Source: Candidatus Aenigmatarchaeota archaeon (GTDB lineage Archaea > Aenigmatarchaeota > Aenigmatarchaeia > JACPZZ01). Taken from it: DNA of 24,000 nt. Every line of letters begins with the position of its first letter. Position 1 is the stretch's first letter. The notes under the pieces are model-generated. The model did no database searches and was not told where the DNA came from. It was given only the letters and a program-made list of their open reading frames with translations. Positions 2,873-22,053 of the stretch are shown piece after piece. Both the position numbers and the translations under genes were made by a program. The DNA is taken from the NCBI GenBank assembly GCA_016180965.1, contig JACPAF010000001.1:1-24000 (forward strand). Reading direction: 5' to 3'.

Positions 2873-2875
2873 CTA

Positions 2876-2896
2876 GACGCATACATAGTATGCGTC
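2876..2896. terminator. perfect 8-bp palindromic hairpin between convergent genes
   Basis: gacgcata-catag-tatgcgtc, followed by agtttgttt. It lies between the stop of the membrane-protein gene (2872) and the 3' end of tRNA-Ile (2909). Confidence 0.4.
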
Positions 2897-2908
2897 AGTT
2901 TGTTTCGA

Positions 2909-2983
2909 TGGGCACGCTCGGATTTGAACCGAGGACCTTTCGATTATCAGTCGAACGCTCTTACCAAGCTGAGCTACGCGCCC
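2909..2983 (-). tRNA. tRNA-Ile (anticodon GAT), no intron, no encoded CCA
   Basis: The reverse complement folds as GGGCGCG-TA-GCTC-AGCTTGGTAA-GAGC-G-TTCGA-CTGATAA-TCGAA-AGGTC-CTCGG-TTCAAAT-CCGAG-CGTGCCC-A. All four stems pair, with one G-U in the acceptor stem. Confidence 0.9.
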
Positions 2984-2993
2984 ACATTAATTA

Positions 2994-3024
2994 GAAGCAT
3001 ATGCTATTCGTATGCACATGCTTC
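2994..3024 (-). other. conserved 31-nt hairpin (11-bp stem, 9-nt loop) ending 10 nt upstream of tRNA-Ile
   Basis: Minus strand reads gaagcatgtgc-atacgaata-gcatatgcttc, then the spacer taattaatgt, then the tRNA +1. A homologous element with compensatory changes lies at 16442-16472. Confidence 0.6.
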
Positions 3025-3112
3025 AGTCTACTCCGCACGAAGTTTTGTTTTTTATCTTAAATAAAAGGTGTTTGGGTATTCGATTCAAATTCTTAACCGT
3101 TTTAATAAAAGG

Positions 3113-3793
3113 ATGACATACAGACAAGTTTCCGTTACGCCCGCGGAATTTATCGAGAAGAACTTCCTGCACCCGCTTTACGGTGATGATCTCAAAGAGG
3201 CTGCAGAAGGCCTGAAAATTTTAAGGTCGATGAAAATCGCGGAAAGAGAGGGCTGTTTAGCGCAGCCGGGAGTTGTTTACAGCCGTGTCAAACACGTGGA
3301 AGATCTGGGCAACGGGCATGAACTGGACATACGAATTGCGACACCCGAAAATTCTTATAACATCAGGAAAAAGGTTAAAGGTGCATGGGTTTATCATCTC
3401 CACCCGGACACCAGAAAATACACCGCTGCCACGGAGTACAGGGTTTTACTCTGTGAAAATGTTGAAAGGTTGCCCAATGATTTTATGCTGTTTGACGGAA
3501 AATCGCATGGGCTGGAACACATGAGCGCCGGCTCCGAAAATCTTCCGCTTGGTCCGGATAGCCACCTTGTTTTGATGGTTACCGACAACGACATGAGGTT
3601 CCTGCAATTTTCCGCTACTGCGCCTGAATGGGAAGATCAAATTATCGATTACTTATCCCGGCCAGTAGCGGTTCGCCAATCTTATGGATTTGATATGTGG
3701 CAACTAAACGGCGTCTGGTCCAGGGGTGCTATGGTTACGATGGGAAGGAATTTCAGCCTGTATCTAAAGCGTCCGGAAAAGAATGGAAAATAA
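3113..3793 (+). CDS. hypothetical protein
   Basis: Clean 226-aa ORF from ATG 3113 (the listed 3068 start is a GTG). I recognise no family motif. It is flanked on both sides by minus-strand tRNA genes. Confidence 0.5.
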   Translation: MTYRQVSVTPAEFIEKNFLHPLYGDDLKEAAEGLKILRSMKIAEREGCLAQPGVVYSRVKHVEDLGNGHELDIRIATPENSYNIRKKVKGAWVYHLHPDTRKYTAATEYRVLLCENVERLPNDFMLFDGKSHGLEHMSAGSENLPLGPDSHLVLMVTDNDMRFLQFSATAPEWEDQIIDYLSRPVAVRQSYGFDMWQLNGVWSRGAMVTMGRNFSLYLKRPEKNGK

Positions 3794-3815: not shown

Positions 3816-3834
3816 AAGCTTTTCGGAAAAGCTT
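3816..3834. terminator. palindromic hairpin between convergent genes
   Basis: aagcttttc-g-gaaaagctt, followed by gttt. It ends 4 nt from the 3' end of tRNA-Ala and lies 23 nt after the stop of the hypothetical gene. Confidence 0.4.
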
Positions 3835-3837
3835 GTT

Positions 3838-3909
3838 TGGACCGGTCGGGATTCGAACCCGAAGCCTCGACGATGCGAACGTCGCGATCTACCGTTGATC
3901 TACCGGCCC
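3838..3909 (-). tRNA. tRNA-Ala (anticodon CGC), no intron, no encoded CCA
   Basis: The reverse complement folds as GGGCCGG-TA-GATC-AACGGTA-GATC-G-CGACG-TTCGCAT-CGTCG-AGGCT-TCGGG-TTCGAAT-CCCGA-CCGGTCC-A. The G3:U70 alanine identity pair is present. Confidence 0.9.
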
Positions 3910-3920
3910 ATTGTATGCAC

Positions 3921-3970
3921 ATGTTTCTAGTTACAACGCATGCTTCAGTCGGCTTTTCAGCTAGAAACAT
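3921..3970 (-). other. 10-bp stem with a 30-nt loop, ending 11 nt upstream of tRNA-Ala; built from the same sequence blocks as the tRNA-Ile hairpin
   Basis: atgtttctag (3921-3930) pairs with ctagaaacat (3961-3970). Blocks gtatgcacatg (3913-3923) and catgcttcagtc (3939-3950) are identical to 3010-3020 and 3017-3028. Confidence 0.45.
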
Positions 3971-4039
3971 ACCGTATGATTGTATCGGTATGGTCCAACC
4001 AACAGCCTACTAACTTTCTTCCATTGTCCGATTTAAGTG

Positions 4040-7384: not shown

Positions 7385-7420
7385 CAAAAACCAATTCTTA
7401 GCAAATAGTGAGTGATTTTT

Positions 7421-8635
7421 ATGGTAAATGAAACCAAGATCGTCGAATTGAAAAAGCTGATACGCATACTCAAAAAAATCAGGGGGCGCCACACGGAACT
7501 GGTTACGGTTTACGTGCCTGCAGGCTACAATCTGATAGAAATTATAAACCAGCTCAAATCCGAAGGCTCGACGACGCAGAACATAAAATCCAAATCAACA
7601 CGAAACAACGTGCTTGATGCGCTAGATAAAATAATCCAGCACCTTAGACTTTATCGTGAAACGCCGGAGAACGGGCTCGCACTTTTCGCGGGAAACGTTT
7701 CAGAAACGGAGGGGGCGCAGAAACTTGATTTATGGGCAATTGAACCTCCGGAAAAAATGCAAAATAAATTGTACTGGTGCGACCAGCAATTTGTTGTCGA
7801 ACCTCTGGAAGAAATGGTCAAGGACAAAGAAGTTTACGGCCTGTTGGCTGTGGATAAATCCGAGGCTACCATAGGGTATTTGATCGGAAAAAAGATTGTC
7901 GTGTTCAAACATATTGAATCACTTGTGCCCGGGAAGACTGCAGCTGGCGGGTGGTCGCAAGCACGTTACGACAGGATACGAGCAGGCCTGTTAAATGATT
8001 TTTTAAAGGAAGTTTCTGACGCCGCGACTCAGGCATTCCTTGGCAAAAAAGAACTTATCGGCATAATTGTCGGCGGTCCGGGTCCCGTAAAGGATGATTT
8101 CGTCAAAGACGGCTACATGCACTATGAATTGCAGAAAAAAGTCGCGGGCGTCATTGACATATCTTACACAAACGAACCTGGGTTGCATGAACTCGTAAAC
8201 AGGGCGCAAAAAATACTGGTAAGCGCTGCGGTCACGAAGGAAATAGAATTAATGAAAATGTTTTTCACAGAACTTCAGAAGGATACAGGCCTGGGAATTT
8301 ACGGCTGGGTGAAAATTAAAGAAGCGCTGGAAAACGGAATGCTCCAAAAATTAATAATATCCGAGGATTTTGATTGGCTCCGTTCTAAGTTTAAATGCGG
8401 TAGTTGCGGCAATGAGGAGACAAGGGATTATAAACCGAATGATAAACAGCTGTGTTCAAAATGCAGGATGGAGATGCGTACAGTCAGCAGTGAAGACCTA
8501 ATCGACGTTGTAATTACAACTGCTGAAGATTTCAAAACCGAATACCACATTGTTTCGTCAAGCACCAGGGAAGGCGCGCAATTAAAAGAGCTTGGCGGGA
8601 TCGGCGGGATATTGAGGTACAAGACGAAATACTAG
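7421..8635 (+). CDS. prf1: peptide chain release factor aRF1 with a GGW variant of the GGQ motif
   Basis: NIKS (7580-7591), YxCxxxF (YWCDQQF), PGKTAAGGWSQARYDRIR at the GGQ position (GGW = 7946-7954), and a C-terminal CGSC...CSKC zinc-ribbon insert. ATG 7421 is preferred over the listed GTG 7412. Confidence 0.85.
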   Translation: MVNETKIVELKKLIRILKKIRGRHTELVTVYVPAGYNLIEIINQLKSEGSTTQNIKSKSTRNNVLDALDKIIQHLRLYRETPENGLALFAGNVSETEGAQKLDLWAIEPPEKMQNKLYWCDQQFVVEPLEEMVKDKEVYGLLAVDKSEATIGYLIGKKIVVFKHIESLVPGKTAAGGWSQARYDRIRAGLLNDFLKEVSDAATQAFLGKKELIGIIVGGPGPVKDDFVKDGYMHYELQKKVAGVIDISYTNEPGLHELVNRAQKILVSAAVTKEIELMKMFFTELQKDTGLGIYGWVKIKEALENGMLQKLIISEDFDWLRSKFKCGSCGNEETRDYKPNDKQLCSKCRMEMRTVSSEDLIDVVITTAEDFKTEYHIVSSSTREGAQLKELGGIGGILRYKTKY

Positions 8636-16388: not shown

Positions 16389-16441
16389 ATTTTCTTTATT
16401 TTAATAGCTGTGTTTATTGTATAATTTTGTAGTAGCAAACT

Positions 16442-16472
16442 GAAACAGATGCATACCAATAGCATCTGTTTC
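16442..16472 (+). other. conserved 31-nt hairpin (11-bp perfect stem, 9-nt loop) ending 10 nt upstream of tRNA-Lys
   Basis: gaaacagatgc-ataccaata-gcatctgtttc, then the spacer tagttgcgac, then the tRNA +1. It is homologous to 2994-3024 (minus strand) with compensatory stem changes. Confidence 0.6.
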
Positions 16473-16482
16473 TAGTTGCGAC

Positions 16483-16579
16483 GGGCCCATAGCTCAGCCT
16501 GGTAGAGCACCTGACTCTTAATTGAACTTTTGTTCATCGAGATATCAGGGAGTCGCGAGTTCAAATCTCGCTGGGCCCA
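16483..16579 (+). tRNA. tRNA-Lys (anticodon CTT) with a 23-nt intron at the canonical 37/38 position (16521-16543)
   Basis: GGGCCCA-TA-GCTC-AGCCTGGTA-GAGC-A-CCTGA-CTCTTA[attgaacttttgttcatcgagat]A-TCAGG-GAGTC-GCGAG-TTCAAAT-CTCGC-TGGGCCC-A. The intron has an internal tgaac/gttca helix, and its gag pairs with C32-U33-C34, giving a relaxed bulge-helix-bulge. Confidence 0.85.
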
Positions 16580-18756: not shown

Positions 18757-19767
18757 ATGGCAAAACGCATACAACCTGAATACGCAAAAGAATATTGGAA
18801 TGTTTTGCAAAGAGGTTTATTTTTTGAAAGTTCCATGCCTGAGATATGGGAATTTGAAAATCTGCAGGAATCCAATGATTGGATGAAAAAACATCACGCG
18901 GTTAAAAAACGTGTATCTCTGGGCTTTCTTAAGCCCGCGATAACTTTTCAGTATGAACCGATGCCGTCCGCAATACCGGGCGAATCCAGCTTCATGTTAC
19001 CGGCAACGGAAAAAGAAGTCCTGATGGCCAGGGTTTTGTACCAAAACGGCAAATTATCAGAAGAGGCCATCATGCAAAGAAATTTTAAACACAAAGAAGT
19101 TTTTTCCGGCCAATTGATACTTATTCCCACAGACGGCGCAGAAACTGCTGTCAGACACCTGGAAAGCGGCGGTTACCATGTACCATCAACGGCGATGGGA
19201 AGGAAAATCGGAATAATACACGAACTGTGCGAGCATGCAGCAACTCACATGAATCCTTCTTACACATTTGTAGTAAACTCCAAACTTGAGCGGGCGCATG
19301 CGCTTTCGCAAAATCCCAACGCGGATCAGGATTATGCAATACTTGAAGGTGCGGCTGCGCATGCGGCACAAGGCCACAGGCATACGATGGTAAACATGAT
19401 AGAGACGTGGGCGTTGGACCAGTTTGGCGAAGATGGTCGTAAAATTGTGCGGGCTCAAAACATGGGCGTTCTCAATATGTTTGCTGATATTTTTAAAAAA
19501 TACAAAACCCCCGAAGACATCAAGAACAACTACGGAGTTTACGTGGGTGAAATGATGGCATTTATGTCGTCGTTCCACGAATACACACTATTAGGCCAGC
19601 TTCTAACTGAACCTGCGTACAAAGGCGGCGTTAGGAATGCCGCTGATGAGCACATAAGAGGCGCTGTGTGGAGAATGTCGCATGAACAGCTCCAAGACTT
19701 ACAGGCAAGATCAACAAAATATATGGAAACCAGAGGTTTTAGAAATGTGACGCCCGGAAAAAATTGA
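18757..19767 (+). CDS. hypothetical protein with HExxH and a downstream Glu (candidate MA-clan gluzincin metallopeptidase)
   Basis: IIHELCEH (HELCEH = 19219-19236), with YAILEGAAAH 38 residues downstream (Glu codon 19345-19347). No signal peptide or TM segment seen. I did not recognise the family. Confidence 0.45.
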   Translation: MAKRIQPEYAKEYWNVLQRGLFFESSMPEIWEFENLQESNDWMKKHHAVKKRVSLGFLKPAITFQYEPMPSAIPGESSFMLPATEKEVLMARVLYQNGKLSEEAIMQRNFKHKEVFSGQLILIPTDGAETAVRHLESGGYHVPSTAMGRKIGIIHELCEHAATHMNPSYTFVVNSKLERAHALSQNPNADQDYAILEGAAAHAAQGHRHTMVNMIETWALDQFGEDGRKIVRAQNMGVLNMFADIFKKYKTPEDIKNNYGVYVGEMMAFMSSFHEYTLLGQLLTEPAYKGGVRNAADEHIRGAVWRMSHEQLQDLQARSTKYMETRGFRNVTPGKN

Positions 19768-21877: not shown

Positions 21878-21926
21878 ATAACCTTGTCTGTTTAAGAAAA
21901 GGTTAATCAAAATATATACAATCGGT

Positions 21927-22053
21927 GCCTGGGTGGCTCAGTGGTAGAGCGCCAGAAATTTGGCGAAACTCATAAGGCGATGTATGAGTGTTGAGCTTAT
22001 GCTATGATAACTAAGACATCTGGAAGTCGTGAGTTCGATCCTCACCCCAGGCA
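21927..22053 (+). tRNA. tRNA with anticodon CAT (elongator Met, or Ile2 if C34 is modified) and two apparent introns: 12 nt at 30/31 (21956-21967) and 43 nt at 37/38 (21975-22017)
   Basis: GCCTGGG-TG-GCTC-AGTGGTA-GAGC-G-CCAG[aaatttggcgaa]A-CTCATA[aggcgatg...ctaagac]A-TCTGG-AAGTC-GTGAG-TTCGATC-CTCAC-CCCAGGC-A. The exons reconstitute a body very like archaeal elongator tRNA-Met. No single-intron model gives a U33-containing 7-nt anticodon loop. Confidence 0.7.

Follow-up and report, generated by a model that had tools for sequence, protein, structure and literature searches.

A short palindromic repeat family at tRNA gene borders and in tRNA introns of an archaeal lineage

We analyzed a stretch of 24,000 nucleotides (the window; positions 1 to 24,000 of contig JACPAF010000001.1, Candidatus Aenigmatarchaeota archaeon) in which a hairpin stands immediately before each of two genes, tRNA-Ile(GAT) and tRNA-Lys(CUU). 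Both hairpins belong to a lineage-specific family of short, probably mobile palindromic repeats, similar to repetitive extragenic palindromic (REP) sequences or miniature inverted-repeat transposable elements (MITEs). The reading we favor, at a probability of roughly 0.6, is that a mobile or duplicative palindromic repeat gathers at the borders of tRNA genes and at further loci with high transcription, and is tolerated there since processing removes the copies. Loci from relatives that were compared with the window carry L-numbers (L001, L002, L003 and so on).

Two window hairpins and their family

The hairpin before tRNA-Ile (2994..3024, minus strand) has an 11-bp stem with one G.T pair (arms 3024-3014 and 3004-2994, GAAGCATGTGC/GCATATGCTTC) and a 9-nt loop, ATACGAATA (3013-3005). 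It follows an ACT (3027-3025) within GTAGACT (3031-3025), and a 10-nt spacer, TAATTAATGT (2993-2984), leads to G1 of the tRNA at 2983. The hairpin before tRNA-Lys (16442..16472, plus strand) pairs perfectly over 11 bp (arms 16442-16452 and 16462-16472, GAAACAGATGC/GCATCTGTTTC) around the 9-nt loop ATACCAATA (16453-16461), with ACT at 16439-16441 and a 10-nt spacer, TAGTTGCGAC (16473-16482), before G1 at 16483; its flanks (16432-16441 and 16473-16482) lengthen the helix, with single-nucleotide bulges. An orthologue of the Ile copy occurs in L015, and orthologues of the Lys copy occur in L003 (two, in tandem) and L006. Reading out the sequence confirmed base for base what an earlier note had described, namely two hairpins of this geometry exactly 10 nt before their tRNAs, whose stems differ by two compensatory pairs (position 4, G-C/A-T; position 7, T-A/G-C) and one G.T/A-T pair (position 8). 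A 36-nt degenerate pattern matched the window at these two sites only (0.00 matches expected from shuffles), and RNA folding z-scores against shuffles were -3.7 and -6.4 for the two hairpins.

A hairpin scan of about 190 kb of related loci revealed some 45 related units. The unit spans about 40-55 nt (31-32 nt without flanks), and its 11-bp stem consists of five conserved outer pairs, GAARC/GYTTC, and six inner pairs that vary yet stay complementary. The foot follows the consensus (A)CT(A)GAARC ... GYTTC(T)AG(T) with an ATAC-type loop, and the left flank reads (GTAG)ACT or CTA, the right flank TAG(TT) or AGT. We distinguished an A-type, to which both window hairpins belong (inner stem CAKRTGC, 9-nt loop ATACNAANA), a B-type (inner stem CATACCG, 10-nt loop ATACAGTATA), a short C-type (GACGCATAC) and several further types. 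One C-type unit, CGAAACAAACTGACGCATACtatGTATGCGTCTAG (2873..2907, hairpin 2876-2896, minus strand), lies 3' of tRNA-Ile, one nucleotide past the discriminator, and this tRNA gene (2909..2983, minus strand; ARAGORN and Rfam) thus has family hairpins on either side. Rfam at gathering score, run on the window and 24 loci, returned tRNA and rRNA only and no family for the hairpins.

The alignment of 41 copies indicates that base pairing is maintained: 97.6% of cells are paired, seven of ten pairs show double-sided changes (66 cells), and the pairing is register-specific, slid controls reaching only 30-53%. The catalogued copies had been selected for complementarity, and the positions that the genome scan (described below) had left unspecified, as N, therefore served as an unbiased sample; these are about 90% Watson-Crick, with T-A, G-C and C-G alternatives. 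Since covariation is joined by pairing at the unbiased positions, the claim of selection on pairing is sound. A tetranucleotide GTAG or GTAA stands 3 nt before many A-type stems, and the B-type counts were 2/36 for GTAG and 9/36 for GTA[AG], where the script counted quasi-palindromic B loops twice and overlooked loops of 9 nt, only the GTAG counts being used; most B-type copies lack GTAG, and a universal GTAG tag is unsupported.

We then scanned 596 Gb, one genome for each of 185,579 species, with the A-type core pattern GAANCANNTGCATRCNNANAGCNNNTGNTTC, recording distances to tRNAs as the earlier note had proposed. All 16 further matches fell in six related metagenome-assembled genomes (MAGs) of groundwater archaea, with zero matches elsewhere, which removes the worry that the similarity was a local duplication with no further copies. 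Twelve of the 16 lie 9-13 nt before a tRNA 5' end (Lys, Ile, Val-UAC, Val-GAC, Ala, Phe, Arg, Leu and others), and the remaining four are found, one each, 9 nt past the 3' end of tRNA-Phe, in an array within a distal leader, 134 nt downstream of 23S rRNA and within a toxin-antitoxin/winged helix-turn-helix island. Chance cannot explain this proximity, given about 45 tRNAs per genome of about 1.5 Mb (assumed round figures, not measured). The proposed link to tRNA genes is strong in this clade, with stem-to-tRNA distances of 9-13 nt in 18 catalogued cases. A-type pattern scans of JGI metagenomes and viral contigs gave 0 matches. The B-type pattern recovered 11 more copies from metagenomes, five at tRNAs and six between protein genes; copies in protein-gene spacers border genes resembling rpS19e, Pus10/rpL21e, rpS26e, IleRS and others (identities from translations read by eye). 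In the upstream stretches read from the distant relatives L021 and L023 (neighbor protein at 63-67% identity) the family hairpin was not seen, and in two distant relatives, L022 and L024, the tRNA-Lys synteny is lost.

The position of the units is not confined to leaders. Units also follow tRNAs, with the stem 9-12 nt from the 3' end, at four sites (window tRNA-Ile, L006 tRNA-Thr, L019 tRNA-Phe and L020 tRNA-Val), and others occur in introns, at non-tRNA loci, in both orientations and in arrays. The dedicated tRNA-leader element that the earlier note had in mind is therefore too narrow a description. Its suggestion that the hairpins sit in the transcribed leader is plausible from the TATA-like stretches upstream, read by eye: ttttatttaagataaaaaa (3048..3066, minus strand), about 20-35 nt before the Ile hairpin, and tttattttaata and tttattgtataatttt (16395..16428, plus strand), a block before the Lys hairpin that is identical in L003. 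At both window copies, transcription from these boxes would begin at the hairpin foot or slightly upstream of it. The note had also named a generic dispersed repeat as the outcome that would speak against it; the family is indeed a dispersed repeat, but a strong positional preference persists.

Turnover between relatives and its interpretation

Comparison of orthologous loci revealed extensive turnover of units. At tRNA-Ile, the window and L015 share the proximal leader hairpin, whereas all sequence further upstream differs, and the window carries, one nucleotide past the discriminator, a 35-nt unit, CGAAACAAACTGACGCATACTATGTATGCGTCTAG, that L015 lacks, without target-site duplication. The interval between tRNA-Ala and tRNA-Ile holds four intact units in L015, and an orphan open reading frame (ORF) plus decayed units in the window. 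All family copies upstream of the window's tRNA-Ala(CGC) (3838..3909, minus strand) are decayed: a degenerate B-type hairpin, GGACCATACCG ... CGGTATGTTTC (3964..3996, minus strand), lies in the distal leader, and a truncated nested copy, ACTGAAGCATG-cgttgta-ACTAGAAACATGTGC-ATACAAT (3910..3949, minus strand), abuts G1 at 3909 and retains the left arms and half a loop, the right arms being gone. A deletion between two ACTGAAGCATG repeats would explain this arrangement.

The surroundings of tRNA-Lys are syntenic in L003, L006 and L002. In L006 a single hairpin, with another stem (GAAGCACATGC/GCGTATGCTTC), stands 9 nt away from the tRNA, L003 carries two tandem hairpins, of which the extra unit measures 49 nt, and in L002 a LAGLIDADG gene and a different, hairpin-free tRNA-Lys stand in place of the whole leader and tRNA. 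Similarly, in the orthologous Val-Val-Ala cluster of L014 and L008, L014 carries a 40-nt unit 5 nt before tRNA-Val(CAC) and an additional B-type unit farther upstream. The unit at tRNA-Val(UAC) is reversed in orientation between the two at equal distance, the tRNA-Val(CAC) stems show compensatory pair differences, and the tRNA-Ala leaders are entirely different. Neither pair of filled and empty sites (window/L015 and L014/L008) shows a target duplication, or a conserved tetranucleotide at the junctions.

Units also lie within the loops of other units, for example in the L013 intron. Concentric nests reach three or four layers, and what appear to be solo arms are their outer layers; one such nest reads CTAGAAGCAT-gaggaa-ACTGAAACATATGCAT-cgcag-CTAGAAGCATACCG-loop-CGGTATGCTTCAGT-ttact-ATGCATATGTTTCTAG-caacct-ATGCTTC. 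Triple nests occur at the unrelated loci L029, L030, L032 and L034, a two-layer nest in L031, and nested copies interrupted by the contig end in L025. The element is dispensable for a tRNA gene, since tRNA-Ala has only a truncated copy and the fourth window tRNA (21927-22053), where a family hairpin was looked for, has none.

We observed a further rearrangement in two relatives. L019 (4641-4875) and L018 (7880-7975) share a near-identical array of B and A hairpins with the same AGT(T/C)AACAGT tail, which precedes a sense tRNA in L018 and the reverse complement of tRNA-Phe in L019. This suggests that recombination between palindromic units may invert or swap an enclosed tRNA gene.

In the reading we favor, units would move as DNA; they would be acquired and lost, change orientation, line up in tandem and enter the loops of units already present, without target-site duplication and presumably with the help of a mobilizing enzyme. 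They would accumulate flush with tRNA gene ends (stem about 10 nt from either) and at other heavily transcribed loci of the translation apparatus. Copies adjacent to tRNAs would be transcribed within the precursor, and RNase P would discard them with the leader, or tRNase Z with the trailer; this removal would make such insertions close to neutral and would account for their tolerance beside tRNAs. Copies landing inside a tRNA would survive only if hairpin and tail complete a BHB (bulge-helix-bulge) motif, and would thereby become introns.

Several observations weigh against this reading. The sharp 9-13 nt spacing and the occupancy of about two thirds of the sampled tRNAs also fit a host function, and the loop orientation of the 18 tRNA-proximal copies is biased relative to the tRNA (13 forward, 3 reverse, 2 unclassifiable). 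In comparisons of orthologues, changes are fewer in stems than in loops and spacers (13/110 versus 20/87, p = 0.054), and some stems differ by compensatory pairs. No transposase or other mobilizing enzyme was identified in the loci read, whole clade genomes being unscanned; the roughly 220 kb of clade genomes examined came from loci picked via the motif. The stem-over-loop conservation cannot separate host from element function, because the mobile GC clusters of yeast mitochondria likewise have stems more conserved than loops (PMC4478555).

These points lead to the alternative of a host-functional RNA hairpin, which would serve as punctuation, stability element or folding insulator of pre-tRNA, pre-rRNA and translation-gene transcripts, set about 10 nt from RNase P and tRNase Z cleavage sites and spread by duplication, as with mRNA-stabilizing bacterial REPs. 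We regard it as rather unlikely. The constant spacing on either side of tRNAs, the copy 3' of 23S rRNA and the non-tRNA copies by ribosomal-protein, aminoacyl-tRNA synthetase and Pus10-like genes would all suit such a role, as would the conserved stems with their compensatory changes and the biased orientation, and, given the TATA-like boxes, the primary transcript would carry the hairpin at its 5' end. At tRNA-Val(UAC), however, a conserved TATA-like box 14 nt from the stem would start transcription inside the left arm. Copy number, type, orientation and even presence vary at orthologous tRNA loci of close relatives; functional-looking tRNAs have a truncated copy or none; and nested and tandem arrays follow no evident processing logic, all of which argue for a mobile or duplicative repeat. 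Among mismatches in the tRNA sense strand G.U is not in excess over A.C (6 G.T versus 5 A.C), and these counts reveal no RNA-level selection in that orientation.

Intronic copies and the bulge-helix-bulge motif

Family copies occur inside tRNA introns at several loci: in the D-loop of tRNA-Thr(CGU) of L013 and of a tRNA-Leu of L007, in a multi-intron tRNA of L018, at the canonical position of tRNA-Leu(UAG) in L020, in the second tRNA of L013 and in tRNA-Thr of L027. A BHB consists of two 3-nt bulges on opposite strands with a 4-bp helix between them (hBHBh' or its relaxed version). The D-loop intron of L013 can be divided into GTTG, GT^A, ACTA-hairpin-AGT, CGGC, AC^A, GAGC, giving a 4-bp central helix (two G.U) and two 3-nt bulges in which the inner helix is the family hairpin, and its removal restores the expected D-arm GCTCAGTTGGTAGAGC. 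This intron is a plain C-type hairpin, the type found at 2876-2896 in the window, and its L027 counterpart holds a B-type unit in the loop. The BHB of L020 tRNA-Leu(UAG) is at the canonical position, with the hairpin in the intron interior. A brute-force search combining BHB motifs with ARAGORN proved too permissive (wrong solutions, e.g. for tRNA-Lys), and its results were used for L013, L012 and L014 only, where manual cloverleaf parsing agrees.

These copies raise the tentative possibility that the palindromic units are raw material of new archaeal tRNA introns. A mobile DNA hairpin would insert in and around tRNA genes; where its stem could act as the inner helix of a BHB and its 3' tail pair with the upstream exon, the insertion would be spliced and kept as a non-canonical intron, which might then grow through additional nested insertions.

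The same copies bear on whether the leader hairpins are themselves substrates of the splicing endonuclease, such that hairpin and flanks would form a BHB and EndA would cut the leader, possibly at tRNA +1. The intragenic relatives in L013 tRNA-Thr(CGU) and L020 tRNA-Leu(UAG) are genuine BHB introns, and their 3' splice site, 9 nt past the stem, is close to the stem-to-tRNA distance of the leaders. In the 18 leader copies (both window copies and 16 others), however, the 4 nt before the 5' triplet and the 4 nt past the stem form no central helix, the best case being three G.U wobbles, and the folds show a 3x3 internal loop or single-nucleotide bulges instead of two staggered 3-nt bulges. Judged by the defining motif, the leader hairpins are thus no EndA substrates. 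The cut would be predicted 3-7 nt upstream of +1, and the window copies lie outside the mature tRNAs, where excision restores no RNA as it does for BHB introns. We consider this explanation highly improbable.

We judge equally improbable a DNA operator or promoter element, a palindrome bound by a dimeric regulator that would co-control stable-RNA genes. Palindromic symmetry, conserved outer half-sites and a location between TATA-like boxes and tRNA fit such a site, but the variable inner 6 bp stay complementary, which a protein site does not need, the distance to the TATA-like boxes is not fixed (14-22 nt), and copies lie 3' of genes, within introns and nested in one another. Chance similarity or local duplication of one tRNA upstream region, for which only the presence of just two full copies in the window speaks, is of negligible probability given zero expected shuffle matches and dozens of copies by unrelated tRNAs in at least seven genomes or contigs.

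Further candidates were rejected. A core promoter does not fit, as the loop would be at -26 but is not TATA-like, copies are located 3' of genes as well as in arrays, and the TATA-like distance varies. Inspection revealed no C box, ACA box or tandem G.A pairs for a C/D-box, H/ACA or K-turn RNA (ACUGA flank), and the 3' flanks TAGTT/AGTT have no T run for an oligo-T terminator. A CRISPR array is contradicted by inner stems that differ among units, flank spacing of 11-26 nt and copies scattered by tRNAs, and a MITE with target-site duplication by the lack of duplication at filled sites relative to empty ones.

Introns also affected the detection of tRNA genes. The tRNA-Lys(CUU) gene (16483..16579, plus strand; sequence read-out, ARAGORN and Rfam) has an intron in the anticodon loop, which is why ARAGORN wrongly names it Ile(aat). 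The fourth window tRNA, 127 nt long, is detected by Rfam and overlooked by ARAGORN, and requires one or two introns. In relatives, both programs overlook several tRNAs whose introns are non-canonical or multiple (up to 303 nt).

Known systems, host lineage and neighboring features

Bacterial REPs and bacterial interspersed mosaic elements (BIMEs) are palindromes tagged with GTAG or CGTC and associated with RAYT or TnpA_REP. The present family resembles them as a short imperfect palindrome repeated many times (about 45 copies in about 190 kb), of similar stem-loop size, dispersed, extragenic, in arrays, with covarying stems and no target duplication; some A-type copies carry GTAG or GTAA 3 nt before the stem, and roles in mRNA stability have been proposed for REPs. 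REPs are stem-loops of 20-40 nt, sometimes inserted within other palindromes (PMC3733652), and REP/BIME elements occur with RAYT transposases (PMC3733652, PMC3333891, PMC2817692). Unlike them, the present family is archaeal, targets exact tRNA gene borders, builds concentric multi-layer nests and supplies parts of tRNA introns. No Y1 (HUH)/RAYT transposase flanked by repeats was noticed in the loci read, whole clade genomes being unscanned. The family thus appears most like REPs or miniature hairpin elements, yet we do not class it as REP, because the GTAG tag is not general and a transposase search was not possible.

Subterminal imperfect hairpins of IS200/IS605-type elements and of their miniature derivatives are recognized as single-stranded DNA and insert without duplication. 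A comparable preference for single-stranded (replicating or transcribed) DNA would account for enrichment at highly expressed genes; in contrast to these elements, tnpA/tnpB is linked to none of the copies seen, and the junctions have no conserved tetranucleotide target. Ty3 and the Dictyostelium TRE elements are tRNA-gene-targeting retroelements, long, protein-coding and guided by Pol III factors. They share with the present family the landing of mobile DNA a fixed short distance from tRNA genes, where it is harmless, but the present units are palindromes of about 50 nt in an archaeon with a single RNA polymerase.

Transposing archaeal tRNA introns are described for Thermoproteales, by a mechanism given as unknown in the later papers that relay the work (Fujishima et al. 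2010, via PMC4090602 and PMC4033280). The present hairpins likewise occur in D-loop and anticodon-loop introns with BHB, but most copies lie outside the mature tRNA, without BHB, and in another archaeal lineage. In Neurospora mitochondria, GC-rich palindromes flank tRNA genes (Yin, Heckman and RajBhandary 1981, as cited in PMC4478555). Mitochondrial palindromes share with the present family the position of hairpin repeats by tRNA genes, strain variability, merging or nesting, stems more conserved than loops and an old dispute between processing signal and selfish DNA; they differ in being organellar and GC-rich, and GC42 has an AG target duplication where the present family has none. Small dispersed palindromes of this sort have been studied extensively in bacteria and organelles. 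In our full-text literature search, no description from Archaea of repeats like these at the borders of tRNA genes came up.

Proteins such as MetRS, ValRS, aRF1 and S8e, all encoded in the window, identify the host as an archaeon. For the protein whose gene adjoins tRNA-Lys, the nearest relatives (78-88% identity) come from groundwater MAGs labeled Ca. Aenigmatarchaeota by NCBI, and the next tier (63-68% identity) from Nitrosopumilaceae, Nitrosotalea and 'Thaumarchaeota'. Going by these identities, we treat the host as a Nitrososphaerota-related lineage, and the NCBI label of the relatives may be wrong.

Two ORFs of the window are of separate note. One lies between tRNA-Ala and tRNA-Ile on the opposite strand (3068-3793, plus strand; 241 aa, or 226 aa from the first ATG); in L015 the counterpart interval comprises hairpin units, 200 nt in all, and the ORF is either an orphan gene or no gene. 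As a candidate mobilizing enzyme it was rejected, with no Pfam/NCBIfam match, weak non-specific PDB hits (best E 6e-4, spatacsin) and no homologue among 5.8 billion proteins. The other (18757-19767, plus strand; 336 aa) has no family match and is also found in L001; it is absent at the syntenic position (EamA transporter/radical-SAM gene) in L002 and L003, and the L006 interval holds two unrelated genes.

We also observed LAGLIDADG-type genes by tRNA loci of relatives (L002 8684-9361, L003 14065-14862, L021 2-370), and L003 (1-1627) encodes an aRF1 with a LAGLIDADG-domain intein (848 aa), whereas the window aRF1 (7412-8635) is intein-free. A second hairpin family, NNNCTTTT-loop-AAAAGNNN (..CTTTT-loop-AAAAG.., often 9-13 bp), was seen at window 3816-3834 and 21879-21905, L003 13937-13959 and 18521-18541, L010 3849-3869, L012 525-551 and L020 1639-1729; it stands directly 3' of tRNA genes, where it resembles an oligo-T terminator on both strands, and also within tRNA introns of the BHB kind, in the T-loop and the anticodon loop. 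Palindromes of a third family, CAYAGGAAAYC-loop-GRTTTCCTRTG (L016 224-270 and 4345-4468; L020 700-755; L018 1776-1804 and 7673-7701; L012 1310-1358; L010 5032-5109), often form adjacent pairs, with some copies by or inside rRNA regions and one within a tRNA intron.

The family carries a general warning, in that hairpin covariation beside a gene does not by itself prove a gene-specific regulatory RNA. If our reading is true, an uncultured archaeal lineage holds REP-like palindromic DNA that homes to exact tRNA gene borders and is also found as tRNA introns. The route by which archaeal tRNA introns pass from one tRNA gene to another, unrelated one is unsettled; a family found in leaders, trailers and introns, and nested in itself, makes that spread testable by population metagenomics and RNA end-mapping. 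Should the palindromic units indeed give rise to introns, they would explain in concrete terms how archaeal tRNA introns transpose, which has long lacked an explanation, and a mobile element targeting tRNA borders would have been described in Archaea.

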